DNA of 59,133 nucleotides from Bacteroidales bacterium. Its GTDB lineage: Bacteria; Bacteroidota; Bacteroidia; Bacteroidales; UBA4417. Below, in pieces: positions 25,489-56,848 of this stretch. A model generated the notes under the pieces. That model made no database searches, was not told where the DNA came from, and worked only from the letters and a program-made list of their open reading frames with translations. The stretch lies in assembly GCA_038322655.1 (NCBI GenBank), contig JBBQGD010000002.1, positions 1 to 59,133 of the forward strand, read 5' to 3'. Every line of letters starts with the position of its first letter. Position 1 is the first letter of the stretch. The position numbers and the translations under genes were made by a program.

Positions 25489-28400
25489 ATGAAAAAATCA
25501 CTACCTCTAAAGCTGGTTATTCGCTGGGCAAAAGGCTTACTTCTGCTTTTGATGTTCACTTTATTGGAACCATCAGCATTTGGACAGGGACGAACCATCA
25601 CCGGAACTGTTACGGATCAGCTAACAAAAGAAACGTTGCCTGGAGCTTCGGTACTTATTAAAGGAACGAACAGAGGTGCCTCAACCGACATAAATGGAAA
25701 GTTTAGCATACCCTTATCACCAACAGATAACGCGCTCGAAATATCGTTTATAGGATACAATAAGGTTGAAGTAGCCATTGGGACGCAAAATGTAATTGAT
25801 GTGCAATTAACATTAATGCAAACAACTCTTGATGCCGTTGTTGTTGTAGGTTATGGTACTACTAAAGTTAAGGACCTTACCTCTTCTATTACGACAGTAA
25901 AATCAGGAGATCTGGTTAAAACGCCTTCATCGCAACCCATGCAAGCCCTGCAGGGCAAAGTTGCCGGTATGCAGGTTGTTGCCAACGGAGGTCCCGGCAA
26001 TTCATCAACCATACGAATCCGTGGTATCGGTTATTTCCCGGGAGTCAGCAATGAATCACCATTGTATGTAGTTGATGGAATGTTCTTCGATAATATTGAT
26101 TTCCTTAATCCTTCGGATATTACATCCATTTCGGTATTGAAAGATGCTTCGGCACTTGCAATTTTCGGAGTTAAGGCTGCAAGTGGTGTCGTTTTAATCG
26201 AAACCAAATCGGGTAATTATGATCAGAAAACCGAAGTTAGCTACGAAGGCTATTCAGGCTATCAAATTGCTCAGAATGTAGTAAAAATGGCCAATTCAGA
26301 ACAATTCACAACCATGGCTATGGAATCAGGTTCAGCGCCTGACATGCAGTTTATTAATAATGCCATGCAACGCTTTGGCAGAAGCCGTGTAAATCCAGAT
26401 GTACCTGATGTAAATACAGACTGGTATCAGGAAATACTTCGTCCCGCCAAAATTCAGAATCACAGTTTCAATGTTGGCGGAGGTGGGTCCAAAGCTAAAT
26501 ATTCACTTGGAGCGAACTACTTCTCCCAGCAAGGTGTCCTTAATATGAAAAATGAATACTCGCGATTTAACCTGAGAGCTAAAGTGGATATTAAGGCTAA
26601 TAACTGGCTGACTGTTGGAGGAAATATAGTGCTTAGTAATGCAGTAAAATATTCGGAGCAAGGCGGCGCATGGAACCAGGCTTATTTTGCTGTTCCTATT
26701 TTACCTGTTTATGATCCATCCAATACGGAGGCCTGGCCAACTGCTTATGCCAATGCACAGGATCTCGGATACAGGAGCGGGCAAAATCCTTTTCCAACAT
26801 TAAAATACAATGAAGACAGGAATAAAATAAATAAAATGTTGGCCAATTTCTATATGGAATTTACCCTTATCCCAAAAATGCTGACCTTCAAAACAACCTA
26901 CAACCACAGTTATACTTCTCTTGACCAAAGGATTGTTAACCTGCCGTATTTTATTGGTAACAGTTTCCAGAATCCCAATTCTAAACTTACAAAAAGATTT
27001 GAAACGTATTCCGACCATATCTGGGATAATGTACTCACATTTACCAAAGAAATTGATAAACATAACTTCACTTTAATGGGAGGTACATCCTACCGTGATG
27101 ATGGCTGGCAAAAACTGGAAGCTCAGGGTGTAGATTTCCCCCTGTATCCTAGCCAGTCATGGTATATCAACCAATCGGCTACAGTGCCGTCCGAAGGCGT
27201 CAACGATGACGGGCGAAGGGAATATGGATTTTCATATTTTGGCAGGCTGGCATACAATTACAACAGCAAGTATCTGTTATATGCAACCTACCGTGCTGAC
27301 GGCAGTTCGAAATACCAGGAAAAATGGGGCTATTATCCTACCGTGGGTGCCGGCTGGGTATTAAGTGAAGAAAAGTTCCTGAAAAATAACAGCGTTATAT
27401 CTTTCCTTAAATTACGCGGAAGTTGGGGAAGACTGGGTAACAACTATGTTAATGCCACTACCGGAGCATTTACATCAGATGTTGTTAAATGGCCATTCGG
27501 TGGAGTTTTATATTCTGGTACCATATCTAATTCAACCTTTGCTTCACTCAAATGGGAACTTACTGAAGAAACTAATATTGGTGTTACAGCCAGGTTTTTA
27601 AAAGATAAATTAACTGCTGACATTGATTATTATATCCGAAACACTAAAAATGCCGTTATTCCGGTTTCCGTTCCCGGAACCAGGGATGTGATTGTTAAAA
27701 ATGCAGGAGAGATACAGAATTCCGGAATTGAATTCTCACTCAATTGGAGCGATGAAATTACAAAAGATTTAAGTTATTCGGTAGGAGGTAATATTTCGAC
27801 GCTGAAAAATAAGGTTGTCGATTTGTATGGACAACCCTATATCGATGGTGGTAGTGCCGAATTCAGACAACGCTCAATTGTTGGCGAACCATTAATGGCT
27901 TTCTTTGGTCGTGAAATAGCCGGAGTATACCAAACCCAGGCTGAAATTGATGCCAATCCTGATGCTGTTGCCAATGGATTGGTTCCCGGCGATTTCAAAT
28001 ATAAAGATCAGAATGGGGATGGAATAATTAATGATGACGACAGGGTTAACCTGGGATCCTATTTCCCGAATTTAATGTATGGTATCAATCTGAGCCTGAC
28101 TTATAGAGATTTTGATCTAACAGCTAATATGTACGGCCAATCAGGGAATAAAGTTCTGAATCGTAAACGAGGAGAAGTAATCTGGACACCTGATCAAAAT
28201 ATGGATGCTGACCTGGCGATAAACCGCTGGCATGGTGAGGGTACATCAAACTCATATCCTTCATCAGCAGGACTTCGTAAAGGATGGAACCAGAAAATGA
28301 GCGACTTTTTTGTTGAAGATGGTTCATTCTTCCGAATCCAGAACGTTCAGCTCGGGTATAAAATAAAAGGCAAAAAACTTTTTGGTGCAAACATCCCTGA

Positions 28401-28542
28401 AACGAAGGTATCACTGACTGCCGACAGGCCATTAACCCTTTTCAAATACCACGGCTTCACACCCGAAGTTGCTAATGGAGTTGATTCCCAAACCTATCCT
28501 GTACCGGCAACTTACACCGTTGGTCTGAATGTTAAATTTTAA
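25489..28542 (+). CDS. susC: SusC/RagA-family TonB-dependent outer-membrane transporter
   Basis: I prefer the ATG at 25489 (MKKSLPLKL...). Carboxypeptidase-regulatory-like domain (TITGTVTD...LPGASVLIKGT..G..TDINGKFSI), then plug and beta-barrel, ending in the typical ...TYTVGLNVKF. susC here means homologue class only. Confidence 0.9.
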   Translation: MKKSLPLKLVIRWAKGLLLLLMFTLLEPSAFGQGRTITGTVTDQLTKETLPGASVLIKGTNRGASTDINGKFSIPLSPTDNALEISFIGYNKVEVAIGTQNVIDVQLTLMQTTLDAVVVVGYGTTKVKDLTSSITTVKSGDLVKTPSSQPMQALQGKVAGMQVVANGGPGNSSTIRIRGIGYFPGVSNESPLYVVDGMFFDNIDFLNPSDITSISVLKDASALAIFGVKAASGVVLIETKSGNYDQKTEVSYEGYSGYQIAQNVVKMANSEQFTTMAMESGSAPDMQFINNAMQRFGRSRVNPDVPDVNTDWYQEILRPAKIQNHSFNVGGGGSKAKYSLGANYFSQQGVLNMKNEYSRFNLRAKVDIKANNWLTVGGNIVLSNAVKYSEQGGAWNQAYFAVPILPVYDPSNTEAWPTAYANAQDLGYRSGQNPFPTLKYNEDRNKINKMLANFYMEFTLIPKMLTFKTTYNHSYTSLDQRIVNLPYFIGNSFQNPNSKLTKRFETYSDHIWDNVLTFTKEIDKHNFTLMGGTSYRDDGWQKLEAQGVDFPLYPSQSWYINQSATVPSEGVNDDGRREYGFSYFGRLAYNYNSKYLLYATYRADGSSKYQEKWGYYPTVGAGWVLSEEKFLKNNSVISFLKLRGSWGRLGNNYVNATTGAFTSDVVKWPFGGVLYSGTISNSTFASLKWELTEETNIGVTARFLKDKLTADIDYYIRNTKNAVIPVSVPGTRDVIVKNAGEIQNSGIEFSLNWSDEITKDLSYSVGGNISTLKNKVVDLYGQPYIDGGSAEFRQRSIVGEPLMAFFGREIAGVYQTQAEIDANPDAVANGLVPGDFKYKDQNGDGIINDDDRVNLGSYFPNLMYGINLSLTYRDFDLTANMYGQSGNKVLNRKRGEVIWTPDQNMDADLAINRWHGEGTSNSYPSSAGLRKGWNQKMSDFFVEDGSFFRIQNVQLGYKIKGKKLFGANIPETKVSLTADRPLTLFKYHGFTPEVANGVDSQTYPVPATYTVGLNVKF

Positions 28543-28560: not shown

Positions 28561-30087
28561 ATGAAACTAAAATCTATATATATCCCATTAGCATTCCTGG
28601 CTGCAACTTTTATTTTTGCTACAGGTTGCAAAAAACAATTAGACGAACTCGCCGAAAACAAAACCTATACCGGGGGCACAGATTATACCAAATCAAGCGA
28701 TATGATAAAACCGCTTCTCGGTATATATGTTAAATTAAGTGCTACCGAATGGGAAAACTATCCTCTTATTGCAGTAAGGGGCGACGATGTAAATGCAGGC
28801 GGACTGGGCGACCAGCAGGATTTTTCAGAAACCGATAATTACAGGTACAATAAAGACTATTGGATGTATAATTCGGTATGGCAGAACCATTATATTAAAA
28901 TTACCAATGCTAATTCAGCCATTCAGCAAATACTTTTATACAAGGAAAATGCAGGCAACAAAGCGCTGGCTGACCAATACATCGCCGAAGTGAAAGTGCT
29001 TCGTGCCTATTGGCTGCTCACTTTATCACGAATTTGGGGTCCTATACTTATTCCTATTGATCCCGATCCGACGTCACTCTATGTTGCTCCTTTGTCAACA
29101 AAAGACCAGGTAATGCAGCATATTTCGGACCAGATAGACGAAGCGCTTCCTTATCTGGTAGATATGAGGCCTAATGAGCGAATTGATATCCCGGGCGGTG
29201 TTACCAAATACACAGCCCTGGCAGTTAAAGCATTGGCAAATCTTGAACTAAAGAATTACCAGAAAGTGGCTGATGCTACTGGTGACATCATTAAATCCTC
29301 AAAATTCAGTTTATATCCTGATTTCTATAACCTTTTTAAAATACCCGGCAAACTCAGTAACGAGAATCTTCTCGAAATGCAGTATTCCGATCTTGGTCAA
29401 GGTTCAGGAGACAACTTTGGTTATCTGTATGCATTTTTCGGACCGCAAGGATGGACACCCAAAATTACAGGTGCCGGCGATGGCTGGGGATTTTTTGAAC
29501 CAAGCCTCAAATACATTAAATTTATGATCGGAAGAGGCGAGAAAACACGCCTGGAAACAAGCGTTCTCTTTACTCCACGCGGGATAGCTGAAATAGCAAA
29601 AACAACAACTGTACCTTCCTGGGTATCAAATACTACTCCTTCGGGTGATGTTATCAACGATTTTGCCCGTGAAATGTTTGCCAGCGGGAAACATTACCTG
29701 CCTTCGGATCAGCTCACTACCGGGCGTACGGATTATGGCACCAATCAGAACATGATCGTCATCAGGTATGCCGAAGTACTGCTTATGTATGCCGAAGCGC
29801 TAACACAAGGTGCTTCCGGATCAGCCGGATCAGCCGACGATGCTGTGAATACAGTGAGAACAAGAGCAGGCCTTGATCCGATTGCAGGGGTTACCAATGC
29901 ACAGGTTATGGATGAAAAATTTGCAGAACTCGCCATGGAATGGGGAACCCGCTTTTATGATATGGTAAGGCTAGGACAAGTCGAAGACCTCAATTACGAT
30001 GGCAGAACCGGATTTGCCATGGATAAAGCATACCTTCCTTATCCACAGGCACAGGTAGATTTACTGCCAATATTGAAACAGAAATAA
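28561..30087 (+). CDS. susD: SusD/RagB-family outer-membrane glycan-binding lipoprotein
   Basis: Starts 18 nt after susC. Lipobox (FATGCKKQ). SusD-like C-terminal motifs (IRYAEVLLMYAEA, EWGTRFYDMVRLG). Confidence 0.9.
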   Translation: MKLKSIYIPLAFLAATFIFATGCKKQLDELAENKTYTGGTDYTKSSDMIKPLLGIYVKLSATEWENYPLIAVRGDDVNAGGLGDQQDFSETDNYRYNKDYWMYNSVWQNHYIKITNANSAIQQILLYKENAGNKALADQYIAEVKVLRAYWLLTLSRIWGPILIPIDPDPTSLYVAPLSTKDQVMQHISDQIDEALPYLVDMRPNERIDIPGGVTKYTALAVKALANLELKNYQKVADATGDIIKSSKFSLYPDFYNLFKIPGKLSNENLLEMQYSDLGQGSGDNFGYLYAFFGPQGWTPKITGAGDGWGFFEPSLKYIKFMIGRGEKTRLETSVLFTPRGIAEIAKTTTVPSWVSNTTPSGDVINDFAREMFASGKHYLPSDQLTTGRTDYGTNQNMIVIRYAEVLLMYAEALTQGASGSAGSADDAVNTVRTRAGLDPIAGVTNAQVMDEKFAELAMEWGTRFYDMVRLGQVEDLNYDGRTGFAMDKAYLPYPQAQVDLLPILKQK

Positions 30088-31395: not shown

Positions 31396-33366
31396 ATGAA
31401 GTCAATTTCCCCTTACATTATTTTTATTTTACTAACTCTTAATTGGGCTTGTAAAAAAGACACTCAGGAAGTTGGCTCACTCAAAATTTCCTCTTGTGCG
31501 GCGAACGACAAAGTACTAAGTAATTCATCTCAGACTGCTGATGTTGCAGTAGATGCAGACTTTGTTCTCAAATTCACTGCTGCTGTCGATAGTAATACTG
31601 TGAAAAATAATATTTTAATCAAGGACAAAGATAACGTTATCGTTCCGGATATCTATTTCAGGTTTGCAGACGGGTATAAAACTGTCACAATCAAAACCTT
31701 TAAGGATCTGAATCTGAAACAGCAGTATACACTTTATGTTCTGAAAACCCTCACAGGAAGTAAAGGAGAAACCTTTACAGAAACCAGCTTTGTATTTACT
31801 ACTGTAAGTGGCTCGTTTATATTGAATTCGATTTCGCTGGAAAACCAGAATTTCATGACACCCCTGCATGTATACAATGTACATGTGGAAGGATCAGTGC
31901 TGAAACTTGAATTTTCAGACCCAGTTGACACAACAAATATTAAATCAAAGTTTACTGTGGAAGGCAATGCCGTTTATAATGTTGCACTAAGCAACTCCGA
32001 CAGATCCATTCAGTTGGAATGCACTCAAAAGCTGCAGGGTTATACCAAATACTCTTTCACCATATCTACTACGCTTAAGTCGAAAGTTGGAACTAAATAC
32101 GAAGGATTCAGTAATTGGTTCTCCACAGCTTTAGATTCTACTCTCAAATTCCCGTTAATCACTGACGACGAATTATTGACACTCATACAGCGCCAGACCT
32201 TCAAATACTTTTATGATTATGCTCATCCGACAAGCGGCATGGCCCGCGAACGCTATTCATCGGGCAACACAGTAACAACAGGAGGATCAGGCTTCGGGGT
32301 TATGGCCCTGATTGTAGGAATGGATCGTGGTTTTATTACACGCCAGCAGGGAACAGACCATTTAACCAAAATAATCAGTTTCCTCGAAACTGCCGATCGT
32401 TTTCATGGAGCCTGGTCGCATTGGATTGATGGCAGTACAGGTAAAGTGATTCCATTTGGCGATAACGATAATGGCGGCGACCTGGTTGAGACTGCCTTCA
32501 TGGCACAGGGCCTGATAGCCATGCGTCAATACCTTAATCCGGCCACGCCTGCAGAAAACAGCCTGATTACCAGGATAAATGCATTGTACGACGGTATCGA
32601 GTGGGACTGGTACAGACGTAGCGGTCAAAATGTGCTGTACTGGCACTGGTCGCCTGATAAGGGATGGATTATGAATTTCCCCCTCCATGGCTATAACGAA
32701 ACGTTGATCACCTACATCATGGCGGCGGGTTCACCTACTCACTCTATACCCAAAGTAGTTTATACTGAGGGTTTTGCCAGGAACGGAGGAATAATTAACG
32801 GAAAAACATTCTATGGATATAGGTTACCATTGGGAAATGATTATGGTGGCCCTTTATTTTTTGCCCATTATTCATTCCTGGGTCTGGATCCGCGAAACTT
32901 ATCGGACGCCTACGCGAATTACTCGGAACAAAATGTTAACCATTCGCTGATTAACTGGCAGTATTGTGTAACAAATCCTAAAAAATGGCCTAATTATAAT
33001 GCTTATTGCTGGGGATTAACTGCCAGCGATATCCCGAACGGTTATACGGCCAGCAGTCCGACAAATGATGTTGGCGTTATTGCACCTACAGCCGCTGTTT
33101 CTTCACTTCCTTATACTCCTGAAAAATCAATGAATGCCATCCGGTACTTTTACTATATTGCAGGTGATCGTTTATGGGGTGAGTATGGATTTTATGATGC
33201 GTTTGATGTCAGCGAAAATTGGTGGGCCAGTTCCTACCTGGCCATCGACCAGGGACCCGAAATAGTAATGATAGAAAACTACCGGACCGGGCTGATATGG
33301 GATCTTTTCATGAGTGCGCCGGAAGTGCAAGCAGGGCTGACCAAATTAGGTTTCAGCTACAAATAA
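31396..33366 (+). CDS. GH144-like endo-beta-1,2-glucanase candidate, lipoprotein with N-terminal Ig-like domains
   Basis: Lipobox (LNWACKKD). About 250 aa of Ig-like repeats, then the catalytic-type region: QRQTFKYFYDYAHP.SG, TTGGSGFG, DNGGDLVETAF, LAIDQGPEIVMIENYRTGLIW. I recognise these as the putative-glucoamylase / GH144 family. Confidence 0.75.
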   Translation: MKSISPYIIFILLTLNWACKKDTQEVGSLKISSCAANDKVLSNSSQTADVAVDADFVLKFTAAVDSNTVKNNILIKDKDNVIVPDIYFRFADGYKTVTIKTFKDLNLKQQYTLYVLKTLTGSKGETFTETSFVFTTVSGSFILNSISLENQNFMTPLHVYNVHVEGSVLKLEFSDPVDTTNIKSKFTVEGNAVYNVALSNSDRSIQLECTQKLQGYTKYSFTISTTLKSKVGTKYEGFSNWFSTALDSTLKFPLITDDELLTLIQRQTFKYFYDYAHPTSGMARERYSSGNTVTTGGSGFGVMALIVGMDRGFITRQQGTDHLTKIISFLETADRFHGAWSHWIDGSTGKVIPFGDNDNGGDLVETAFMAQGLIAMRQYLNPATPAENSLITRINALYDGIEWDWYRRSGQNVLYWHWSPDKGWIMNFPLHGYNETLITYIMAAGSPTHSIPKVVYTEGFARNGGIINGKTFYGYRLPLGNDYGGPLFFAHYSFLGLDPRNLSDAYANYSEQNVNHSLINWQYCVTNPKKWPNYNAYCWGLTASDIPNGYTASSPTNDVGVIAPTAAVSSLPYTPEKSMNAIRYFYYIAGDRLWGEYGFYDAFDVSENWWASSYLAIDQGPEIVMIENYRTGLIWDLFMSAPEVQAGLTKLGFSYK

Positions 33367-33468: not shown

Positions 33469-34866
33469 ATGAAAAACCGGATAATGCTCAGCAATTTATT
33501 ATTACTTGTCCTTTTCATAAGTGTTTCAGGTTGTGCCCAGTCGCAGCAACAGGCATTCAAATCCTACGGGAAAATAAATTATCCGGCTACATCTGATGAA
33601 ATAGCAATGCTTGATTCCATCCAGTATAAGACCTTTCTTTACTTTTTAAATGAGCATAGTCCTGATAAGGGAATTGTGAAGGACCGCGCTGCAGCATGGG
33701 CTCCTGCAAGCATAGCAGCAACCGGTTTCGGAATCCCTTCCTTTGCTATAGGAGTTGAGAGAAATTGGATTACACGCAAACAGGCTGCTGACATTACCCT
33801 GAATATTCTGAAATTCTTTGCCTATTCCGTTCAGAGTACTGATACCAATGCCACAGGATATAAAGGATTTTATTACCATTTCCTGCGCATAAATTCAGGC
33901 ACGAGAGAATGGAAATGCGAACTTTCATCTATAGATACAGGCTTACTGATGATGGGTATCATTTTTGCCCGGAATTATTACAATCTGGATGATGAAACAG
34001 AGGAACAGATTCGATCGCTTGCAGCAACACTATTAGAACGAATGGATTGGAAGTTTATGCAAATGTCGGCAACTGCCAAACATCCCAATGCATTATCCAT
34101 GGCCTGGACTCCGGAACAAGGATTGCTCAACCACGGTTGGAGCGGGTACAACGAAGGACTTTTTCTTTATATCCTGGCTGCCGGAACCGGCATGGAAGAT
34201 GTGAACCGGAGTTTTGATTCATGGCTTTCAACGTATGAATGGAAAACACCTTATAAAGGACTTTCACATGTAGCATTCCCCCCTTTGTTCGGACACCAGT
34301 TTTCGCAGGCATTTATCGACTTCCGCGGCCTGGGCGATAAATATATGAAGGAAAAAGGGATTGATTACTTCGAAAACTCAAGGCGGGCAACCTATGTTCA
34401 GCGCCGGTATGCTAGTGATAATCCAAAAGGATGGATCGGTTATGATTCGCTTTGCTGGGGCATTACCGCATGCGACGGGCCTGGTGGTGAATACAATTTT
34501 GGCAACAAAAAATTTGAAGGTTATGCCGGCAGAGGTACCAGCGGACCTGATTTTACTATCGCTGAAGATGGCACAATTGCTCCATACGGTTCTCTTTCTT
34601 CATTGCCATTTGCTCCCGAAATTGTTTTCCCAACTATAAAATCGATGAATAAAAAGTACGGTTCAAAAATATGGGGCAAATACGGTTATTACGACTCATT
34701 CAATCTTACTGCAAAATGGGTGGATAGCGATTTCCTTGGTATAGATGAAGGCCCGATGCTTATTATGATTGAAAATTTCAGGACCGGGTTGGTATGGAAT
34801 TATGTTATGAAAGACCCTGTCATTCAGAAAGGATTGGACAAACTAGGTTTTGCGTATATAAAATAA
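33469..34866 (+). CDS. Divergent GH144-related (DUF3131-like) lipoprotein
   Basis: Lipobox (SVSGCAQS). Shares the family ends (IQYKTFLYFLNEHSP, ATGFG, LGIDEGPMLIMIENFRTGLVWN) but the central acidic motif differs. Unusually for this segment, it is preceded by AGGAGG 8 nt before the ATG. Confidence 0.6.
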   Translation: MKNRIMLSNLLLLVLFISVSGCAQSQQQAFKSYGKINYPATSDEIAMLDSIQYKTFLYFLNEHSPDKGIVKDRAAAWAPASIAATGFGIPSFAIGVERNWITRKQAADITLNILKFFAYSVQSTDTNATGYKGFYYHFLRINSGTREWKCELSSIDTGLLMMGIIFARNYYNLDDETEEQIRSLAATLLERMDWKFMQMSATAKHPNALSMAWTPEQGLLNHGWSGYNEGLFLYILAAGTGMEDVNRSFDSWLSTYEWKTPYKGLSHVAFPPLFGHQFSQAFIDFRGLGDKYMKEKGIDYFENSRRATYVQRRYASDNPKGWIGYDSLCWGITACDGPGGEYNFGNKKFEGYAGRGTSGPDFTIAEDGTIAPYGSLSSLPFAPEIVFPTIKSMNKKYGSKIWGKYGYYDSFNLTAKWVDSDFLGIDEGPMLIMIENFRTGLVWNYVMKDPVIQKGLDKLGFAYIK

Positions 34867-42728: not shown

Positions 42729-42836
42729 TCAAGAAGCTTTACAGAGAATCCAAATATATCTGTCACCCTTTAAAATCTTGAAATGAATTAATAAGAAGTA
42801 CCTAAAATGTCACAAAAATTCAACTGATTAAAAGTC

Positions 42837-43661
42837 ATGAACAAAACCAAAATACTTTTAGTTAAAGGCATCTCTATAGCAACTATAGTAATAGGAGACG
42901 AAGCATATATTTCCATCACAGATATTGCCAGAAATAAAAATGCTTCAGAACCTAAAGATGTAGTTAAGAATTGGTTGCGTTCAAAAACAACTATTGAGTT
43001 TCTTGGAATTTGGGAACAATTGTATAACCCCGACTTCAAAGGGGTCGAATTCGACTCCTTTCTCTATGAAGCTGGGAGTAACTCTTTTACACTTTCCCCA
43101 TCAAAATGGATTGAAGCCACAAATGCAAGAGGAATTATTTCCAAGGCGGGGCAAAACGGCGGCACATACGCCCACAAAGACATTGCTTTTGAATTCGCTT
43201 CCTGGGTGAGTTCGGGATTCAAACTTTACCTGATTAAAGAATTCCAAAGGCTTAAGGCAGAAGAAAATGAACGTCTGCAACTCAATTGGAACCTTCAGAG
43301 AACCCTGGCTAAAGTGAATTATCATATTCATACGGATGCGATTCAGGAAAACCTGATTCCAATAGAATTGACAAAACAACAAATCAGTTTTGTATATGCA
43401 AACGAAGCTGATATGCTCAATATGGCACTGTTCGGAACGACAGCCCGTGAATGGCGTAAGGAAAATCCGCTAATTGAAGGTAATATCAGGGATTTGGCTT
43501 CTATAGAACAACTGGTTGTGCTATCCAATATGGAAAGTATAAATGCAGTTCTTATCCATCAGGGCATAATACAAAGTGAACGATTATTTCAATTAAATAA
43601 AATTGCCATTACCCAAATGAAATCATTGGTTGGGAATAAAAATTTAAGAAAATTGAAATAA
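42837..43661 (+). CDS. KilA-N domain DNA-binding protein
   Basis: 274 aa. YISITDIARNKN....VKNWLRSKTTIEFLGIWEQLYNP....YAHKDIAFEFASWVS matches my memory of the Bacteroidota KilA-N family. By eye the gene is more AT-rich than its neighbours. Confidence 0.7.
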   Translation: MNKTKILLVKGISIATIVIGDEAYISITDIARNKNASEPKDVVKNWLRSKTTIEFLGIWEQLYNPDFKGVEFDSFLYEAGSNSFTLSPSKWIEATNARGIISKAGQNGGTYAHKDIAFEFASWVSSGFKLYLIKEFQRLKAEENERLQLNWNLQRTLAKVNYHIHTDAIQENLIPIELTKQQISFVYANEADMLNMALFGTTAREWRKENPLIEGNIRDLASIEQLVVLSNMESINAVLIHQGIIQSERLFQLNKIAITQMKSLVGNKNLRKLK

Positions 43662-43692
43662 GTATCGAAATCTAATTAGTATAAACAAAAAA

Positions 43693-47073: not shown

Positions 47074-48438
47074 ATGAGATATTTGAAACTGGTATTTTTT
47101 TCTGGTTTATTCTGCTTCCTGTCTTGCAAAGGTCAGCAGGCAAAGCAGACTAAACAGGTAAAACCTTCGGAGATCTCCGATGATTCTCTTTTGACACTGG
47201 TTCAGTACCATACTTTTCAATATTTCTGGGAAGGAGCCGAGCCTGTTTCCGGTCTTGCCTGCGAAAGGATCCATCTGGATGGAAACTATCCCGAAAATGA
47301 CCGCTCTGTAATTACTTCAGGAGGTTCTGGCTTTGGAATAATGGCTATACTGGTTGGAATTGAAAAGGGTTTTATCAGCCGCCAGGATGGCTATAATCGC
47401 CTCAGGAAAAATGTGGGTTGGCTGGCGAAAGCGGATCGTTTCCATGGCGCATGGCCCCATTGGATGCATGGTGAATCCGGAAAAGTAAAACCATTCAGCT
47501 CGAACGACAATGGTGCTGACCTGGTGGAAACAGCTTACCTGATGCAGGGACTGCTTTGTGCAAGGCAGTATTTCAAAGATGGAAATAAAGCAGAGAAAAA
47601 ACTAGCAGCCGATATCGATACACTTTGGAGAGAAGTGGAATGGTCGTGGTTTACCAATGGAACCACGGATACCTTATTCTGGCATTGGTCGCCCGACAAG
47701 GCCTGGACAATGAATTTCGCTATAAAAGGCTACAATGAATGCCTTATAACGTATATATTGGCTGCCTCCTCTCCTACTTATGCTATTCCTGCAGAAGTTT
47801 ACACAAAATGCTGGGCCCGGAATGGCGACATCGTTACTGACAATGGCGGACATTTTGGCTATAAACTTGCCCTGAAACATAATTATGCAGAAGAATACGG
47901 AGGTCCTCTTTTCTGGGCACATTATTCGTACCTTGGTCTTGATCCCAGGGGTTTAAAGGATAACTATGCAGATTACTGGGAAGAAAACAAAAACCAAACC
48001 CTTATAAACAGGCAGTGGTGCATTGAGAATCCCGGGAAATACAAAGGGTATGGAGAAAATTGCTGGGGATTAACATCAAGCTATTCCTTAAAATTTTATG
48101 CGGCACATGCCCCAGGCGATAAAAGAGATAAAGGCGTTATCGCACCAACTGCTGCACTTTCTTCATTCCCTTATACTCCTGAATATTCCATGCAGGCTTT
48201 GAAGCATTTCTATTATGATCTTGGAGATAAGATATGGGGAAAGTACGGTTTCTACGATGCTTTCAGCGAGCAGGAGGATTGGTATCCGGAGAAATACCTG
48301 GCAATTGATCAGGGGCCGCAGATTGTGATGATCGAGAATTACAGAAGTGGTTTATTATGGAAACTGTTCATGAGTTGTCCAGAAGTAATAGAAGGATTGA
48401 AAAAACTGGACTTCAGCAGCACTTCGGTTGAAAAATAG
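47074..48438 (+). CDS. GH144-like beta-1,2-glucanase candidate (lipoprotein)
   Basis: Lipobox (CFLSCKGQ). Family motifs VQYHTFQYFWEGAEPVSG, TSGGSGFG, DNGADLVETAY, LAIDQGPQIVMIENYRSGLLW. Confidence 0.8.
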   Translation: MRYLKLVFFSGLFCFLSCKGQQAKQTKQVKPSEISDDSLLTLVQYHTFQYFWEGAEPVSGLACERIHLDGNYPENDRSVITSGGSGFGIMAILVGIEKGFISRQDGYNRLRKNVGWLAKADRFHGAWPHWMHGESGKVKPFSSNDNGADLVETAYLMQGLLCARQYFKDGNKAEKKLAADIDTLWREVEWSWFTNGTTDTLFWHWSPDKAWTMNFAIKGYNECLITYILAASSPTYAIPAEVYTKCWARNGDIVTDNGGHFGYKLALKHNYAEEYGGPLFWAHYSYLGLDPRGLKDNYADYWEENKNQTLINRQWCIENPGKYKGYGENCWGLTSSYSLKFYAAHAPGDKRDKGVIAPTAALSSFPYTPEYSMQALKHFYYDLGDKIWGKYGFYDAFSEQEDWYPEKYLAIDQGPQIVMIENYRSGLLWKLFMSCPEVIEGLKKLDFSSTSVEK

Positions 48439-48456: not shown

Positions 48457-49878
48457 ATGAACAAAAATGTTACGATACTTTTCCTATTTCTTGCGTTCGG
48501 AATTTCAGTTCCTGCACAAAAGAATGGTAAAACAATAGTACCAAACAGAAATTCCATTCCTGTTGTTGGGATAATTAAGAATTTATCTGATACAGCACTG
48601 CTCGAAATAGTACAGCGCCAAACTTTCAGGTATTTCTGGAATTACGGTCACCCGGTCAGTGGCCTGGCCAGGGAACGAAGTAACACTGTATTAGCCGAAC
48701 ATTACTGGGATTATATCAACGAAGCCTGGGACGAGCCCAATTTCAGTAAGACTCCATTTGGTCCGGATGCATGTGCTATCGGTGGAACAGGTTTTGGAAT
48801 TATGGGCACCATTGTAGCTGTCGAAAGAGGTTGGATAAGTCGCGATAGCGCAGTTGGCCGGCTGATTCAAATAGCTGATTTCCTGGCAAATGCTGACTGT
48901 TTTCACGGTATTTATCCTCATTTTATGGATGGCCGAACCGGTAAAACCATTAAGTTTGATCGGCTGGATGATGCGGCTGACCTGGTTGAAACTTCCTACC
49001 TGATGATGGGATTTTTGTGTGCAAGGGAATATTTCAATAACGACATTCCTAAAGAAAAATACCTTCGTAAAAGAATTAACCAGATGTGGAACACAGCTAA
49101 CTGGAACTGGCATACCAACGGCGAGAAAAAATTATACTGGCATTGGAGTCCAAACAATGGTTTCGATATGAATTTCCCGATCACAGGGTGGAACGAATGC
49201 CTGATTACATACATCATGGCTGCTTCATCACCACGTCATCCTATTTCGAAGGATGTTTACGACGGAGGATGGGTTGGCAGCCCGGGATTTATGAACGGGA
49301 AATCCTACTATGGAATTAAACTCCCTCTTGGAAATTACGATATGGGTGGTCCTTTGTTTTTTGAACAATACACTTTCCAGGGAATTGACCCAAATGAATT
49401 AACTGATTCTCTCGGCAACAATTATTTCGAGCAAGGACTCAACCATACACTGATCAACAGGGCTTACTGTATTGAAAATCCTAAAAAATATGTAGGTTAT
49501 AGCGAAAATTGCTGGGGGCTCACTGCCGGCTACAGTTACAAAGGATATGTGGCACATTGCCCAGAAGTTGATCTGGGAGTGATCCAGCCAACGGCTGCGC
49601 TCTCATCTTTTCCTTATACACCGGAATATTCAATGCAGACGCTCAGGCATTTTTACTATGACCTGGGTGATAAGATCTGGAGCGAATATGGATTTACAGA
49701 TGGTTTCAGCCAGTCGCATAACTGGTATGCAAAAAGTCACCTTGCCATTGATCAGGGCCCGATCATAGTGATGATAGAAAACTACCGGAGCGGCTTGCTG
49801 TGGAAGCTCTTTATGCAGATTCCGGATGTTCAAATCGGTTTGAAAAGACTTGGATTTAGAAGTCCCTGGATTAAATAA
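48457..49878 (+). CDS. GH144-like beta-1,2-glucanase candidate (Sec signal, periplasmic)
   Basis: Signal peptide (GISVPAQK). Family motifs QRQTFRYFWNYGHPVSG, GGTGFG, DDAADLVETSY, LAIDQGPIIVMIENYRSGLLW. Confidence 0.8.
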   Translation: MNKNVTILFLFLAFGISVPAQKNGKTIVPNRNSIPVVGIIKNLSDTALLEIVQRQTFRYFWNYGHPVSGLARERSNTVLAEHYWDYINEAWDEPNFSKTPFGPDACAIGGTGFGIMGTIVAVERGWISRDSAVGRLIQIADFLANADCFHGIYPHFMDGRTGKTIKFDRLDDAADLVETSYLMMGFLCAREYFNNDIPKEKYLRKRINQMWNTANWNWHTNGEKKLYWHWSPNNGFDMNFPITGWNECLITYIMAASSPRHPISKDVYDGGWVGSPGFMNGKSYYGIKLPLGNYDMGGPLFFEQYTFQGIDPNELTDSLGNNYFEQGLNHTLINRAYCIENPKKYVGYSENCWGLTAGYSYKGYVAHCPEVDLGVIQPTAALSSFPYTPEYSMQTLRHFYYDLGDKIWSEYGFTDGFSQSHNWYAKSHLAIDQGPIIVMIENYRSGLLWKLFMQIPDVQIGLKRLGFRSPWIK

Positions 49879-49902: not shown

Positions 49903-52065
49903 ATGCTAATGTTGAGAAATCGGTTGATAGTTTTTTGTTTATTCGCCTCTCTTGTGTCATCAGCTCAAGAATATGAGTATGATTATGTTTTTTTTCGAAA
50001 CAGTGCAATGGCAGGCAATTATTTTTTCAGCAAATCGGAGAGCAGTGGTGGCTCGACGATAATCAATGTAAATAATAAGCTTCCGGTTTGCGAAACCATC
50101 TGGCATACTCCCGGCAATTCATTGGAACTAACTTATAAAAATACTGTAAACGGAAATTGGAAAGCGATTATTCAAATTCCGAAAAAACGCGGTATGGATC
50201 ATTTTAAAAAAGCCGGATTCCTTTCATTCTGGATATTCAAAACTTCGGATGGTGATCTCCCGGGAGTTCGATTAATGAGAAAGGACAGCAGTCTTAGCAA
50301 GATCTTGATAATCCCTGAGGGAAACGTTAATGTTTGGAACCAGGTTATCATACCCACATCTTCAATTGAAAACTTTGATGCAAATAGTCCAGCTGACATT
50401 ATTGCCGTTGTTTTCTCACAAAAGAATAATAAGGTAAGCAAAGAAAATACGATTTATATTGATGATATTGAATTTCTCGCTGATGAAAATTCAGGACAGA
50501 TTTCTGAAATTCCGGAAATTATAACGGCAACCGGTTATGCCATGCATGTGGATATCACGTGGATAAAAATAACTGATCCTGCTGTCCGCCTGGTGAAAAT
50601 TTACCGCTCTGAAAACGGGAAAAAGTATGAAGCAGTTGGCATACAGCAACCTTATACGAATAGCTATGCTGATTTCACAGGCGAAACCAATAAAAAATAT
50701 TTCTATAAGATTTCCTTCCTGAACTCAAGGTATGAGGAAACTAAATTTTCAGTTCCTGCCTCATCTTCAACAAAACAAATGACTGATGACGAACTGCTTA
50801 CCATGGTGCAGGAAGCCTCGTTCCGCTATTATTGGGAAGGTGCGGAACCCAACAGCGGGTTGGCAAGAGAAGATATCCCGGGCCGGAAGAATATGATTGC
50901 TATCGGTGCATCAGGATTTGGAATAATGGCCCTAATCATTGGTACTGAAAGAGGTTTTATCACCAAAAAAGAATCCGTTGACCACTTTGTTAAAATTGTA
51001 AACTTTTTAGAAACGGCAGAAACCTTTCACGGAGTGTATCCTCATTTTATGGACGGCACAAATGGCAAAGTGGTTCCATTCTTTGGTCATCGGGATAACG
51101 GGGCCGACCTGGTGGAAACATCCTTCCTGATGCAGGGCCTGTTGGCAGCCAGGCAATATTTCTCAGGCGATAATCAACAGGAACAACTTATCAGGCAAAA
51201 AATTACCAAAATCTGGGAAAAAGCAGAATGGGACTGGTTCCGTCAAACACCTGACAGCAAATTTTTATACTGGCATTGGTCGCCCGACCAGGGCTGGGTG
51301 ATCAATCATAATCTGATTGGATGGAACGAAACTATGGTAACCTATCTGCTGGCAATAGCCTCACCTACTCATCCGGTTCCTTCAAGCATGTATTATACCG
51401 GTTGGGCTAACCAGGATAGTACGGGGATAAAATACCGTTCAAACTGGGGACAAACCTCCGAAGGATCACATTATAACAACGGCAATACTTTTTATGGCAT
51501 TAAACTCGATGTTGGAGTATCCAATGGCGGACCATTATTTTTTACGCATTATTCGTATATGGGTTATGATCCGCATTTTATTACCGATAAATACACGAAC
51601 TATTTCACAAACAATCAAAACATTGCAAAAATAAATTACCGGTATTGCGTTGAAAATCCTCAACATTTTAAAGGCTATGGCGAAAATGCCTGGGGACTGA
51701 CTGCCAGTGACGGACCATTCAGATACTCTGCGGATGAGCCCGTACCATGGCAGGACCGTGGAAAAATTGCACCAACCGGAGCTATCAGTTCTTTTCCGTA
51801 TACACCTGATGAATCCATGGCAGCTCTAAAAAATTATTACTATACTTACGGTAATTTTCTCTGGGGTGAATATGGATTTAAAGATGCATTTGATCTTAAC
51901 AACAACTGGTGTTCCGAAATTTACATGGGTCTCAACCAGGCGCCACAGGTAGTGATGATTGAAAATTATCGCACAGGCCTGATATGGAAATTGTTTATGC
52001 AAAATCCTGAAATACAAAATGGCTTAAAAAAGCTTGAAGTAGAAACAAAAGACATAAAGCACTAA
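49903..52065 (+). CDS. GH144-like beta-1,2-glucanase candidate with a ~290-aa N-terminal beta-sandwich / FN3-like extension
   Basis: Signal peptide (VSSAQE). The N-terminal region has no family motifs. From aa ~295: VQEASFRYYWEGAEPNSG, GASGFG, DNGADLVETSF, MGLNQAPQVVMIENYRTGLIW. Confidence 0.75.
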   Translation: MLMLRNRLIVFCLFASLVSSAQEYEYDYVFFRNSAMAGNYFFSKSESSGGSTIINVNNKLPVCETIWHTPGNSLELTYKNTVNGNWKAIIQIPKKRGMDHFKKAGFLSFWIFKTSDGDLPGVRLMRKDSSLSKILIIPEGNVNVWNQVIIPTSSIENFDANSPADIIAVVFSQKNNKVSKENTIYIDDIEFLADENSGQISEIPEIITATGYAMHVDITWIKITDPAVRLVKIYRSENGKKYEAVGIQQPYTNSYADFTGETNKKYFYKISFLNSRYEETKFSVPASSSTKQMTDDELLTMVQEASFRYYWEGAEPNSGLAREDIPGRKNMIAIGASGFGIMALIIGTERGFITKKESVDHFVKIVNFLETAETFHGVYPHFMDGTNGKVVPFFGHRDNGADLVETSFLMQGLLAARQYFSGDNQQEQLIRQKITKIWEKAEWDWFRQTPDSKFLYWHWSPDQGWVINHNLIGWNETMVTYLLAIASPTHPVPSSMYYTGWANQDSTGIKYRSNWGQTSEGSHYNNGNTFYGIKLDVGVSNGGPLFFTHYSYMGYDPHFITDKYTNYFTNNQNIAKINYRYCVENPQHFKGYGENAWGLTASDGPFRYSADEPVPWQDRGKIAPTGAISSFPYTPDESMAALKNYYYTYGNFLWGEYGFKDAFDLNNNWCSEIYMGLNQAPQVVMIENYRTGLIWKLFMQNPEIQNGLKKLEVETKDIKH

Positions 52066-54551: not shown

Positions 54552-54562
54552 ATCCAATACAT

Positions 54563-56848
54563 ATGATTCGAAAATTACTTCTTTTATCATGCATTCTTTT
54601 ATTCAGTAATGCAATAGTTTTTTCACAGACCAAGGTATCTGCAGGTGATCAGAAAATGAAAACTTTCGTTGATGCCCTGATGAAAAAAATGACCCTTGAT
54701 GAGAAAATAGGGCAGTTAAACCTGCCGGCATCCAGCGATATCGTTACCGGTAGCACTGCCAGTAATGATATCGGGAATAAAATTAAAGACGGCAAAGTCG
54801 GCGGTTTGCTAAATGCAAAATCCCTGGTAAAAATCCGCAAATTTCAGCAATTAGCTGTAGAAGAGAGCCGCATGAAAATTCCTTTGCTTTTTGGCATGGA
54901 TGTTATACACGGGTATGAAACCATATTCCCTATTCCGCTTGCACTTTCCTGCTGCTGGGACATGCAGATAATTGAACAATCAGCCCGGGTTGCTGCCACT
55001 GAATGCAGTGCCGATGGGGTATGCTGGACCTATTCACCTATGGTTGATATCGCCCGCGACCCTCGCTGGGGGCGCGTTTCCGAAGGTGCCGGCGAAGATC
55101 CTTACTTAGGTTCGCTCGTTGCCGAAGCCATGGTAAAAGGATACCAGGGCGATGATCTGAAGAAAAACAATACCATTATGGCATGTGTAAAACATTTTGC
55201 CTTGTACGGTGCTGCCGAAGGCGGCCGGGATTATAATACAGTTGATATGAGCTACGTGCGCATGTATAACGATTACCTCCCTCCATACAAAGCCGCAGTT
55301 GATGCAGGCGTAGGAAGTGTGATGAGCTCATTTAACGAAATTAACGGCATACCCGCTAGCGCCAACAAATGGCTTTTAACTAATTTGCTTCGTAAACAAT
55401 GGAAATTCACCGGCTTTGTAGTAACCGACTATACCGCCATCAACGAACTGATAAATCACTGTATCGGTAAGGATCTGGAAGATGTATCGGCAATGGCCCT
55501 GAATGCAGGCATTGATATGGACATGGTGGGCGAAGGTGTTCTCCTTAATACAAAGCAACTTATAAAAGAAGGTAAGATATCCTTGAAAACAATTGATAAT
55601 GCCTGTCGGCTGGTACTGGAAGCAAAATACAAATTAGGCCTTTTCGACGATCCATACCGTTACCTGAGCGAAGAAAGGGCTAAAACAGAAATCTTTACTC
55701 CCGAAAACAGGTTAGCCGCCCGAACTGCTGCCGAACATTCAATGGTATTACTCAAAAATGATAACCTTCTGCTTCCTCTCGATCCGTCAAAAAGCATTGC
55801 TCTTATCGGTCCGCTTGCAGATATCCGGCCTGATATAACCGGTTCCTGGCCACCTGCAGGCAACCAGGAAAACTCAACGAGTGTGCTGTCGGGTGTTAAA
55901 AAGCTGCTCGGCAATTCATCTGAGATTTATTATGCAAAAGGCTGTAACTTACTGACTGACAGGAATTTTTTAAGCCGGATAAATGGTAAAGCTTCGGTTG
56001 ACAGCCGTACTGATGATGAAATGATTAACGAAGCCTATAATGTTGCGTCACAAGCCGATGTGATTGTAGCCGTACTTGGCGAACCATCCGGATTTAACGG
56101 CGAAGCATCTTCAAGAAGCGAAATTGGTATACCCGGCCGGCAGCTTGAATTATTAAAAACCCTTCTGAAAACAGGCAAACCAATTGTACTTGTCATCGTA
56201 AGCGGCAGGCCTCTTACGCTGGAATTTGAGGCTGCTAATGTTCCGGCCATTCTACAGGCCTGGGATGGAGGAACTGAAACAGGAAATGCTGTGGCTGATG
56301 TTTTGTATGGAAAATATAATCCTTCCGGGAAATTAACCATGACATTCCCGGTAAATGTGGGACAGATTCCTATTTATTACAACCATAAAAACACGGGGCG
56401 TCCTTTAGTTGATACAAGCGACAAATACCTGAGTCGTTACCTGGATGTTTCCAATGAGCCGCTTTTCCCTTTTGGCTTTGGCCTGAGTTACACCACTTTC
56501 GGTTATTCAGACTTGAAACTTGATACGCAAAAATTAAAATCAGACGGAACTTTGAATATCTCTGTAAAGCTCACCAATACAGGAAAATACGATGGAACCG
56601 AAATAGCTCAGTTGTATATCCGCGATTTGGTTGGAAGTATCACCCGGCCGGTAAAAGAACTGAAAGGTTTTCAGAAAGTATTCCTGAAAGCCGGTGAGAA
56701 CAGAACCCTAAATTTCACACTTACTCAAACTGACCTGGCGTTTTATAACAGCGATCTGCAATTTAAGGCAGAGCCCGGCGATTTTAAGGTATTTGTAGGA
56801 ACAAATTCAGCCTCAGTGCTGGAAGCATCGTTTGAATTGCTGAAATAA
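54563..56848 (+). CDS. bglX: GH3 periplasmic beta-glucosidase (BglX-like)
   Basis: 761 aa with a signal peptide. GH3 motifs (DVIHGY, PRWGRVSEGAGEDPYL, KHFALYGAAEGGRDYN, GFVVTDY with the nucleophile Asp) and the C-terminal FN3-like domain. Confidence 0.9.
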   Translation: MIRKLLLLSCILLFSNAIVFSQTKVSAGDQKMKTFVDALMKKMTLDEKIGQLNLPASSDIVTGSTASNDIGNKIKDGKVGGLLNAKSLVKIRKFQQLAVEESRMKIPLLFGMDVIHGYETIFPIPLALSCCWDMQIIEQSARVAATECSADGVCWTYSPMVDIARDPRWGRVSEGAGEDPYLGSLVAEAMVKGYQGDDLKKNNTIMACVKHFALYGAAEGGRDYNTVDMSYVRMYNDYLPPYKAAVDAGVGSVMSSFNEINGIPASANKWLLTNLLRKQWKFTGFVVTDYTAINELINHCIGKDLEDVSAMALNAGIDMDMVGEGVLLNTKQLIKEGKISLKTIDNACRLVLEAKYKLGLFDDPYRYLSEERAKTEIFTPENRLAARTAAEHSMVLLKNDNLLLPLDPSKSIALIGPLADIRPDITGSWPPAGNQENSTSVLSGVKKLLGNSSEIYYAKGCNLLTDRNFLSRINGKASVDSRTDDEMINEAYNVASQADVIVAVLGEPSGFNGEASSRSEIGIPGRQLELLKTLLKTGKPIVLVIVSGRPLTLEFEAANVPAILQAWDGGTETGNAVADVLYGKYNPSGKLTMTFPVNVGQIPIYYNHKNTGRPLVDTSDKYLSRYLDVSNEPLFPFGFGLSYTTFGYSDLKLDTQKLKSDGTLNISVKLTNTGKYDGTEIAQLYIRDLVGSITRPVKELKGFQKVFLKAGENRTLNFTLTQTDLAFYNSDLQFKAEPGDFKVFVGTNSASVLEASFELLK

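Follow-up and report, generated by a model that had tools for sequence, protein, structure and literature searches.

In many Gram-negative bacteria, β-1,2-glucans act as factors in virulence, symbiosis and osmoprotection, and their natural recycling is known from a handful of enzymes. Loci with glycoside hydrolases (GHs) of family 144 rank among those predicted most often in Bacteroidota (PMC6499787). In Ignavibacterium album, the cluster IALB_1177-1187 contains two GH144 genes, a GH94 homologue of sophoro-oligosaccharide phosphorylase (SOGP), a GH35 gene, a TonB-dependent transporter and an ATP-binding cassette (ABC) importer, and it was discussed as one mixed pathway in the paper that characterised IALB_1185 (Kobayashi et al. 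2022, PMC8861115). SOGP acts only on chains with a degree of polymerisation (DP) of at least 3, and its reactions are reversible (PMC5309861). The GH35 β-1,2-glucosyltransferase IaSGT disproportionates the sophoro-oligosaccharides Sop2-5 (Sop2 being sophorose) and frees glucose from Sop2 without hydrolysis (PMC8861115). Here we describe a SusC/SusD-type locus at positions 25489-56848 of a 59,133-nt window, i.e., the whole stretch of DNA analysed, from contig JBBQGD010000002.1 of the Bacteroidales assembly GCA_038322655.1. Judged by its gene content, the locus probably serves to take up and degrade bacterial β-1,2-glucans, be they linear, cyclic or osmoregulated periplasmic glucans. This reading is well supported by homology, since proteins of the locus match the SOGP, IaSGT and BT_3567 enzymes with their catalytic residues conserved.

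The region holds 16 open reading frames (ORFs) of 222-1113 amino acids on the forward strand, from the SusC gene (25489) to the end of the GH3 gene (56848), as established from the ORF listing and the N-termini. They are separated by 15 intergenic gaps of 18, 31, 185, 102, 12, 48, 95, 108, 31, 39, 18, 24, 50, 21 and 11 nt. The original prediction had claimed seventeen co-directional genes with gaps of 11-185 nt, bounded by a regulator upstream and a hairpin downstream. The common direction held, all 15 measured gaps lie within the claimed range, and both the regulator (22183-25032) and the hairpin (56871-56910) were located, but the number of genes is 16 and becomes 17 only if the upstream regulator is added. 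The adjacent SusC-like and SusD-like genes, the co-directional genes for carbohydrate-active enzymes and the dedicated regulator identify the region as a Bacteroidota polysaccharide utilisation locus.

The GH94 protein matches LpSOGP (5h3z), which has the same length of 1113 residues, over residues 7-1103 (E = 1e-176, 592 bits). Other GH94 enzymes, i.e., cellobiose-, chitobiose- and laminaribiose-type phosphorylases, match it at 6e-7 or worse, with no more than 31 bits. The protein has the four-domain SOGP architecture, its first two domains, SOGP_N (PF21958) and SOGP_2nd, being recognised at E = 1e-51 and 1e-54, respectively. Residues R630, D631, W758, D760, E917, Y922 and H924 of LpSOGP are all kept (here R631, D632, W758, D760, E918, Y923 and H925). 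They comprise the catalytic D760, subsite -1 (R630, D631, W758, E917) and the phosphate site (Y922, H924; PMC5309861); the comparison was made outside S1005 and S1006 of LpSOGP. No GH149 or GH161 structure appeared among the PDB matches of the protein. The LpSOGP match, the SOGP_N domain and the catalytic residues thus uphold its earlier placement in the SOGP clade rather than in GH149/GH161.

Like the phosphorylase, the GH35 protein has one clearly closest relative. It scores 513 bits against IaSGT, to which it is about 43% identical in the first 407 aligned columns, versus 215 bits (1e-62) against the next GH35 enzyme. In the alignment to IaSGT, Y52, E102, N175, E176, N278, E346, R352 and Y381 are conserved. 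The acid/base E176, the nucleophile E343 (here E346), N175 (an Asn, not an Asp) and the subsite +1 residue R349 (here R352) of IaSGT are therefore kept, as are its hydrophobic aglycone residues (roles taken from PMC8861115). Closest match and catalytic residues place the protein in the IaSGT clade of GH35, in agreement with the family claimed before, and both catalytic glutamates are present.

The five GH144 paralogues (GH144a to GH144e, in gene order) all match PF10091 over profile positions 1-220 of 221 (E = 2e-68 to 4e-84, 231-282 bits, cut-off 27), each about 200 bits above the cut-off, which bears out the family to which they had been assigned. They also match the solved GH144 enzymes CpSGL, XcSGL and BDI_3064 (E = 2e-106 to 2e-246). 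The sequence signature said to be shared by all five is found in four of them (GG/GASGFG, D-x3-D-L-V-E-T, AIDQGP..VMIENYR), whereas GH144b carries AATGFG, ELSSIDT and GIDEGPMLIMIENFR in its place. GH144b is about 30% identical to the other four, and its best solved relative is XCC2207/XcSGL (8xul, E = 2e-106). When the five paralogues are aligned with CpSGL and BDI_3064, the CpSGL residues D135/D139/E142/E211 are kept in GH144a (D358/D362/E365/E435), GH144c (D145/D149/E152/E222), GH144d (D171/D175/E178/E247) and GH144e. GH144b keeps the general-acid Glu (E229, in the E211 column) and has an Asp in the E142 column, as in GH192/GH194 enzymes, and D135/D139 are not kept. The general acid of CpSGL is E211 and E142 is a further acidic residue (PMC12102758); the general-acid Glu and an acidic residue in the E142 column are present in all five paralogues.

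Within this set the predicted roles differ. In GH144a, acidic residues follow the lipid Cys (CKKDTQE), and the protein is a candidate endo-β-1,2-glucanase of the cell surface. The match of GH144e to BDI_3064, an exo enzyme that releases sophorose, spans the N-terminal domain; the catalytic domains are 63% identical, and both proteins have an Asn at the position of CpSGL D400. The GH3 protein matches BT_3567 (5xxl) at E = 1e-294 and Lin1840 at E = 3e-172, so that its assignment to the BT_3567/Lin1840 type rests on solved relatives. The features of the locus are collected in Table 1.

Table 1. Features of the β-1,2-glucan locus, in order of position in the window.
Feature	Coordinates	Strand	Evidence
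One-component regulator that spans the membrane, probable BguR type, 949 aa	22183..25032	+	Pfam Reg_prop, Y_Y_Y; transmembrane profile
SusC-like TonB-dependent transporter	25489..28542	+	CarbopepD_reg_2 and Plug domains
SusD-like surface lipoprotein	28561..30087	+	SusD_RagB E 4e-22; lipobox ATGC, then KKQLDE
Lipoprotein with Ig-like and Laminin_G_3 domains, 363 aa	30119..31210	+	Pfam; lipobox AASC
GH144a, 656 aa, lipoprotein, two Big_5 domains and catalytic domain	31396..33366	+	PF10091 E 2e-76; CpSGL 5gzh E 4e-155
GH144b, 465 aa, divergent XcSGL-like lipoprotein, conserved core member	33469..34866	+	PF10091 E 7e-70
Secreted protein of uncharacterised family, 1060 aa	34879..38061	+	Pfam match: F5/8 type C only
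GPH/MFS_2 sugar:cation symporter, 696 aa, ~260-aa C-terminal extension	38110..40200	+	MFS_2 E 7e-64
Cytoplasmic GH35, β-1,2-glucosyltransferase (IaSGT) type	40296..42728	+	7vkw E 1e-152; no signal peptide
KilA-N domain gene on 964-bp low-GC insertion	gene 42837..43661, insertion 42729-43692	+	KilA-N E 1e-20
Cytoplasmic GH94 SOGP, 1113 aa	43693..47034	+	SOGP_N, SOGP_2nd, GH94, SOGP_4th; no signal peptide
GH144c, 454 aa, lipoprotein, paralogue closest to CpSGL (Cpin_6279)	47074..48438	+	5gzh E 2e-208, 66% identity
GH144d, 473 aa, Sec signal	48457..49878	+	PF10091 E 5e-76
GH144e, 720 aa, full-length homologue of BDI_3064	49903..52065	+	5z06 E 2e-246 over residues 23-712
Secreted GH43-like five-bladed propeller with CBM32, 581 aa	52116..53861	+	Glyco_hydro_43 E 3e-19; F5/8 type C E 1e-16
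Secreted SGNH/GDSL esterase, 222 aa	53883..54551	+	Lipase_GDSL_2 E 8e-14
Periplasmic GH3 β-glucosidase, BT_3567/Lin1840 type	54563..56848	+	GH3 N-terminal, C-terminal and Fn3-like domains
Terminator-like hairpin, interrupted, closing the gene array	56871-56910	+	followed by U-run UUUUUAUU

The organisation of the locus was compared with that of related loci. Relatives of the GH35 protein were found in 283 genomes when each species was represented by a single genome, the best matches (69-85% identity) being metagenome-assembled genomes of Lentimicrobiaceae and other Bacteroidales. Neighbours were counted by tblastn of all window proteins in the best 80 of the loci anchored on GH35, plus locus L001. 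The gene of the major facilitator superfamily (MFS) symporter accompanies GH35 in 73 of 74 cases, adjacent to it, GH94 in all 64, and the gene of the 1060-residue protein and GH144b each in 52 of 59. A conserved core order, GH144a-GH144b-1060 aa-MFS-GH35-GH94, recurs in dozens of Bacteroidales genomes; in L001 the full order is Reg-SusC-SusD-LamG-GH144-GH144-1057 aa-MFS-GH35-GH94-GH3. The absolute linkage of MFS, GH35 and GH94 supports the view that the three form a functional module. Its symporter matches TIGR00792 at E = 4e-51, below the cut-off of that model, and is a candidate inner-membrane importer of sophoro-oligosaccharides.

For the C-terminal extension of the symporter (residues ~435-696), a long stretch resembling a coiled coil and one additional hydrophobic helix (642-671) are predicted. 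In L001 and in the Verrucomicrobiota-labelled L027, the full length of 694-696 residues is kept. The MFS-GH35-GH94 triad was further found at about 74% amino-acid identity on contigs labelled Verrucomicrobiae/Limisphaerales (L027, L029, L030 and L053; also L032 and L040), which suggests its lateral transfer between phyla. Locus L027 has a GC content of 51-57% and an N_methyl prepilin-type gene, with a divergent PF10091 gene upstream of the triad and a GH3 gene downstream. Bins labelled Limnocylindrales and Saccharimonadales look like mis-binning.

In the window, the triad is interrupted between GH35 and GH94. The spacer at this junction has a median of 37 nt in 75 loci, compared with 964 nt here, and the inserted segment has a GC content of 35.5% versus 43-44% in the flanking genes. 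Its KilA-N gene matches phrog_2657 (transcriptional regulator) at E = 3e-57. Homologous inserts occur only in L003 and L004, at the same junction, and in L046, at the junction of the 1060-aa and MFS genes; no repeats were found flanking the 964-bp insertion. The KilA-N gene is a sporadic insertion and not a component of the pathway, and its behaviour is that of a small mobile gene inserting time and again into this operon. A role as regulator of the locus was rejected, given its absence from about 95% of the syntenic loci and its foreign base composition. Larger inserts at the same two junctions were seen in L022 (5.2 kb, GH35/GH94) and L039 (1.8 kb, 1060 aa/MFS).

The 1060-residue secreted protein of the conserved core, passed over in the original prediction, is the real unknown of the locus and the part most worth following up. 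Its domains comprise a CBM11-like module (~26-180; CBM, carbohydrate-binding module), a CBM32 (190-310), a β-supersandwich (343-560), an (α/α)6 barrel (576-953) and a C-terminal β-sandwich. Sequence searches of Pfam, NCBIfam and the PDB recognise only the CBM11-like and CBM32 modules, and a profile of 47 diverse family members found no solved relative for the catalytic part in the PDB. The family is large: a HMMER search with the C-terminal 760 residues returned 2300 representatives of clusters at 50% identity, 725 of them at E ≤ 1e-30. Assignments to GH15, GH94 and the GH144 clan were examined and rejected, since every match to a family model falls below its threshold and the PDB profile search retrieves the CBM modules only. 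As a GH15 enzyme, the protein reaches E = 0.063 and 12.6 bits against PF00723 (cut-off 22) and 25 bits against TIGR01577 (cut-off 821); as an enzyme of GH94 or the GH144 clan, it matches GH94 in the PDB profile search at E = 0.036-0.048, in linker regions only.

An AlphaFold2 (AF2) model of the protein was built from a diverse alignment of 96 sequences (pLDDT 90.7, pTM 0.87); it replaced an earlier model from 60 close homologues (pLDDT 72.5), with an unchanged outcome of the fold search. Foldseek matched the model to GH94, GH15, GH116, GH65 and GH133 folds (E = 1e-16 to 1e-10, TM 0.5-0.6 per target, 10-13% identity). The protein thus has in common with GH94, GH15, GH65 and GH116 enzymes the three-domain catalytic architecture of supersandwich and (α/α)6 barrel, only the fold class being shared. 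Unlike those enzymes, to which it is 10-13% identical and with no above-threshold profile match for the catalytic part, it is secreted and bears two N-terminal CBM-like modules. Residues invariant in the family are R634-S-W636-I-R638-D639-G, E687, D689, H757, E758, D770, D832, D834, E884, E921, D935 and H938. The RSWIRDG motif is similar to the subsite -1 motifs W-x-R-D of GH15 and R-D of GH94.

The 1060-aa protein also has distant homologues, with 33-45% identity, in Desulfobacterota, Binatia and Proteobacteria. A GH94 gene, of the SOGP type or a longer form, adjoins the homologue in five of the six contexts examined, and MdoG (GH186-family), PF10091 or GH1 genes lie near it in three of these contexts. 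By individual counts, MdoG together with PF10091 was seen in 2 contexts, GH1 in 2, a transporter of the ABC_membrane_2/SbmA-BacA type in 3 and sugar ABC permeases in 3. The P0104 cluster (1489 aa, 33 member sequences) has a PF10091 plus 1060-aa architecture, representing either a fusion of GH144b with the 1060-aa protein or a gene call that reads through from one to the other; only 12 nt separate the two genes in the window. On contigs of the Desulfobacterota type (L082, L085 and a JGI 343-kb contig), the homologue is paired with SOGP/GH94 and an ABC_membrane_2/SbmA-BacA-type transporter of 559-597 residues, and L085 additionally carries a GH1 gene. Two homologues of this type, P0311 and P0270, are without a signal peptide in the sequences read. 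This arrangement may represent another form of the pathway, located in the cytoplasm, or even a route of synthesis.

The cross-phylum linkage of the 1060-aa family to β-1,2-glucan genes is the strongest new lead of this study. The family very probably acts in β-1,2-glucan metabolism, with members predicted to be periplasmic in some lineages and cytoplasmic in others. That the protein is the founding example of a glycoside hydrolase or transglycosylase family dedicated to this metabolism seems to us nearly an even bet, slightly on the side of doubt. Such a reading is allowed by the size of the family, by a core without solved or curated relatives and by the GH94/SOGP, GH144, MdoG-type or GH1 neighbours across phyla. 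The enzyme could carry out a step for which no enzyme is known, such as the opening of cyclic or α-1,6-closed glucans or the removal of branches.

The predicted locations of the proteins outline the path of the substrate. The N-termini of the proteins encoded at 31396, 33469 and 47074, like those of SusD and the 30119 protein, bear a Cys lipobox. Cleavable Sec-type signals occur in the proteins encoded at 34879, 48457, 49903, 52116, 53883 and 54563, and the N-termini of the 40296 and 43693 proteins are without a signal. Manual reading of the N-termini thereby agrees with the three lipoproteins, six Sec-signal proteins and two signal-less proteins of the original prediction.

The following pathway is proposed, all of its steps being deduced from homology, predicted compartment and gene order. 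The membrane regulator, putatively of the BguR type, would sense periplasmic oligosaccharide and switch the array on. At the surface, lipoprotein GH144a would cut the polymer, SusD and the 363-aa lipoprotein would bind the fragments, and SusC would import them. In the periplasm, the putative endo enzymes GH144b, GH144c and GH144d would shorten the chains, the BDI_3064-like GH144e would release sophorose and the GH3 enzyme glucose; the GDSL esterase may strip acyl substituents, and the 1060-aa and GH43-like proteins would add further steps. The GPH-type symporter would carry sophoro-oligosaccharides into the cytoplasm. There, the GH94 SOGP would phosphorolyse chains of DP ≥ 3 to glucose-1-phosphate and stop at sophorose, and the GH35 enzyme would disproportionate sophorose (2 Sop2 -> Sop3 + Glc), thus feeding the phosphorylase again. 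The pair would in this way convert sophorose to glucose and glucose-1-phosphate without a cytoplasmic β-glucosidase, a proposal made because SOGP needs DP ≥ 3 and IaSGT disproportionates Sop2-5 without hydrolysis. With the symporter, the triad may be a self-contained module for this conversion. The order of steps predicted earlier (surface cleavage, SusCD import, periplasm, MFS, cytoplasm) fits the signal-peptide pattern.

Several points weigh against this account. The signal-peptide and lipoprotein assignments come from N-termini read by eye. At subsite +2, the GH35 protein differs from IaSGT, with Q106 replaced by Ala and Y392 by Ser. IaSGT has Km values of 120 and 300 mM for Sop2 and Sop3, respectively, and prefers alkyl/aryl glucoside acceptors (PMC8861115); because these Km values are very high, the cycle of glucosyltransferase and SOGP may not be the physiological role of the GH35 enzyme. 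In a GH144 locus of Bacteroides xylanisolvens, the GH35 enzyme proved to be a β-1,2-galactosidase (PMC11739564), so that GH144 loci need not target a pure glucan; that enzyme belongs to a galactosidase clade, unlike the GH35 protein described here. Finally, a plain β-1,2-glucan substrate leaves unexplained the GH43-like protein, the esterase and both CBM32 modules.

These accessory features bear on the alternative that survives best, namely that the true substrate is a decorated or mixed glycan on a β-1,2-glucose backbone. Such a substrate could, for instance, be a cyclic glucan with acyl or phosphoglycerol substituents, a branched osmoregulated periplasmic glucan, an α-1,6-closed cyclic glucan or an environmental heteroglycan, from which the 1060-aa protein, the GH43-like protein and the esterase would remove the features that are not β-1,2. 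Besides the GDSL esterase, the GH43-like propeller and the two CBM32 modules, the GH15-like RSWIRDG motif and the sub-threshold GH15 matches of the 1060-aa core point in this direction, GH15 being a family of enzymes for α-glucosides. The GH144 locus with a β-1,2-galactosidase is a precedent (PMC11739564), marine GH144 loci with sulfatases have been taken to mean decorated substrates (PMC6499787), and the β-1,2-glucan cluster of Streptomyces griseus likewise holds an esterase gene (PMC12369401). The GDSL esterase is accordingly a candidate de-acylase for substituted glucans, a role suggested by this setting. On the other hand, the conserved core comes without the esterase and the GH43-like gene, and every protein with a characterised close relative points only to β-1,2-glucose linkages. 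We consider a decorated substrate possible but rather doubtful; it overlaps the β-1,2-glucan explanation and does not exclude it.

It is unlikely that the 31 kb are not one unit but a core (SusC to GH94) followed by a cassette acquired and regulated separately, GH144c-GH144d-GH144e-GH43-GDSL-GH3, possibly with another substrate range. Across the related loci, GH144c/d/e-GH43-GDSL is indeed a variable accessory block, partly present in L002, L009, L013, L051 and L057, and its combinations differ: d, e and GH43 occur in L002 and L013, c, e and GH3 in L009, and GH3 alone in L001. In L065, L072 and L073, the GH43-GDSL-GH3 genes are inverted, and the KilA-N insertion shows that the array tolerates interruptions. 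In the window, however, every gene points the same way, the accessory block has no gap wider than 50 nt, the intergenic gaps upstream of 56871 yielded no terminator-like hairpin, and GH144c, GH144e and GH3 have the clearest β-1,2-glucan relatives of the whole locus. Least likely of all is that GH35 and GH94 serve not catabolism but the use of sophoro-oligosaccharides as glucosyl donors to build or remodel alkyl/aryl glucosides or an internal β-1,2-glucan pool: the kcat/Km of IaSGT is far higher for alkyl/aryl glucoside acceptors than for sophoro-oligosaccharides, with no hydrolysis (PMC8861115), the SOGP reactions can run in reverse (PMC5309861) and the signal-less Desulfobacterota homologues of the 1060-aa protein accompany SOGP and an SbmA-BacA-type (ABC_membrane_2) transporter, but here the two genes belong to a SusC/SusD import locus, where they immediately follow the gene of an importer-type GPH symporter, run in the same direction as those of six secreted glycosidases, and have no glycosyltransferase, acceptor-synthesis or export gene beside them.

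Among the remaining genes of the locus, the SusC protein gains a signal peptide when read from the ATG at 25489; the longest ORF begins with a TTG at 25402. The 363-aa lipoprotein (30119) is probably a surface glycan-binding protein, as judged from its position only, which is also filled in L001 and several other loci. The GH43-like protein matches PF04616 over profile positions 10-286 of 288 with 70.2 bits (cut-off 32.2), and its matches in the PDB are weak and partial only. Its gene is the most conserved of the accessory genes (82-89% identity where present, above the core genes), yet none of its close relatives is characterised or solved, and a role for it on a glucan is not obvious. A search of NCBIfam left five proteins unnamed, namely GH144a, GH144e, the GH43-like and KilA-N proteins and the GDSL esterase.

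The regulator upstream of SusC consists, in order, of a signal/anchor (3-23), β-propeller repeats, Y_Y_Y (679-736), one transmembrane helix (739-761), a coiled-coil linker and a putative LuxR/GerE helix-turn-helix (906-945). Pfam detected no HisKA, HATPase or receiver domain in it, and a syntenic regulator is present in L001. Regulators of the BguR architecture are reported to accompany GH144 loci consistently and to form a separate clade of BguR homologues there (preprint 10.64898/2026.01.10.698779). The protein described here is similar to BguR of Bartosik et al. (same preprint) in size (949 versus 940 residues), in domain order, in the lack of HisKA, HATPase and receiver domains and in the position of its gene directly upstream of SusC, a likeness of architecture and not of compared sequences. 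Its GerE match (residues 906-945, E = 8e-4, 19.5 bits) falls below the Pfam cut-off of 23.5 bits. In that work, only the laminarin regulator of Formosa agariphila was genetically tested.

The hairpin at the 3' end of the array has a predicted dG of -17.4 kcal/mol (z = -4.75 against 200 shuffles) and was missed by the generic terminator scan because of its interior mismatch. In the window, the σ70 promoter and generic terminator scans gave hits not above those of shuffles, and an Rfam search gave no match; since the σ70 scan does not cover Bacteroidota promoters, no promoter is claimed. Directly upstream of the regulator and co-directional with it lies a gene (19040-22006) for a secreted GH89 α-N-acetylglucosaminidase (NAGLU domains, E = 1e-129; CHB_HEX_C/Fn3-associated tail), with no obvious link to β-1,2-glucan. 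The base composition of the window changes sharply near 12 kb, from 45-50% GC in 1-12000 to 36-45% in 12000-59133. The genes of the first 12 kb encode a WD40 protein, a class-V aminotransferase, a liv-type branched-chain amino-acid ABC transporter, an aldo-keto reductase and an ornithine cyclodeaminase.

The original prediction regarded the known β-1,2-glucan pathways as either hydrolytic or phosphorolytic, a division that ignores the I. album cluster of GH144, GH94 and GH35 (PMC8861115). To present the locus as the first link of both routes is an overstatement, because the mixed pathway of I. album was laid out in 2022. The pathway logic, the common GH144 loci and the association with BguR-type regulators are already known, so that the locus type is largely anticipated, and specialists in carbohydrate-active enzymes will find the logic unsurprising. 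What is new is the recurrent core order, the 1060-aa family beside β-1,2-glucan genes across phyla and the recognition of the KilA-N gene as an insertion. In the published literature, with PULDB and CAZy outside the search, we found no description of the SusC/SusD, MFS, GH35 and GH94 architecture or of the 1060-aa family; a literature search for SusC/SusD loci with GH144 and GH94 returned insect-gut metagenome surveys only. The locus represents a fixed module across an uncultured clade of anaerobic Bacteroidales (Lentimicrobiaceae, Tenuifilaceae and Salinivirgaceae from groundwater, lakes, digesters and sediments), one that would join outer-membrane capture and GH144 cleavage to energy-saving cytoplasmic phosphorolysis. 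It offers a concrete candidate role for the puzzling GH35 transglycosylase, and the large 1060-aa family, as yet uncharacterised, stands out as what to study next in this pathway.

Compared with the described systems, the locus has features of each. Like lin1838-1841 of Listeria innocua, it has a GH94 SOGP and a GH3 β-glucosidase for sophoro-oligosaccharides; the Listeria system differs in being Gram-positive, with an ABC importer and with no endo-glucanase, outer-membrane machinery or GH35. The hydrolytic GH144 and GH3 loci of Chitinophaga pinensis (Cpin_6279), Bacteroides thetaiotaomicron (BT_3567) and Parabacteroides distasonis (BDI_3064) have their relatives here in GH144c, GH3 and GH144e, respectively. 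As characterised, those loci end in hydrolysis, whereas the present one adds an inner-membrane symporter and a cytoplasmic phosphorylase and transglycosylase. As in I. album, GH144 enzymes, a TonB-dependent transporter, an SOGP-type GH94 and a GH35 β-1,2-glucosyltransferase are combined, the GH35 protein keeping the catalytic and subsite -1/+1 residues of IaSGT. The proposed pathways are also alike (outside cleavage, import, periplasmic trimming, then cytoplasmic phosphorolysis and transglycosylation), that of I. album being itself speculative. Unlike the I. album cluster, the locus described here has a SusC/SusD pair with surface lipoproteins at the outer membrane, a GPH/MFS symporter in place of an ABC importer with a binding protein for sophoro-oligosaccharides, five GH144 proteins including one of the exo type, a GH3 β-glucosidase and the conserved 1060-aa core protein.

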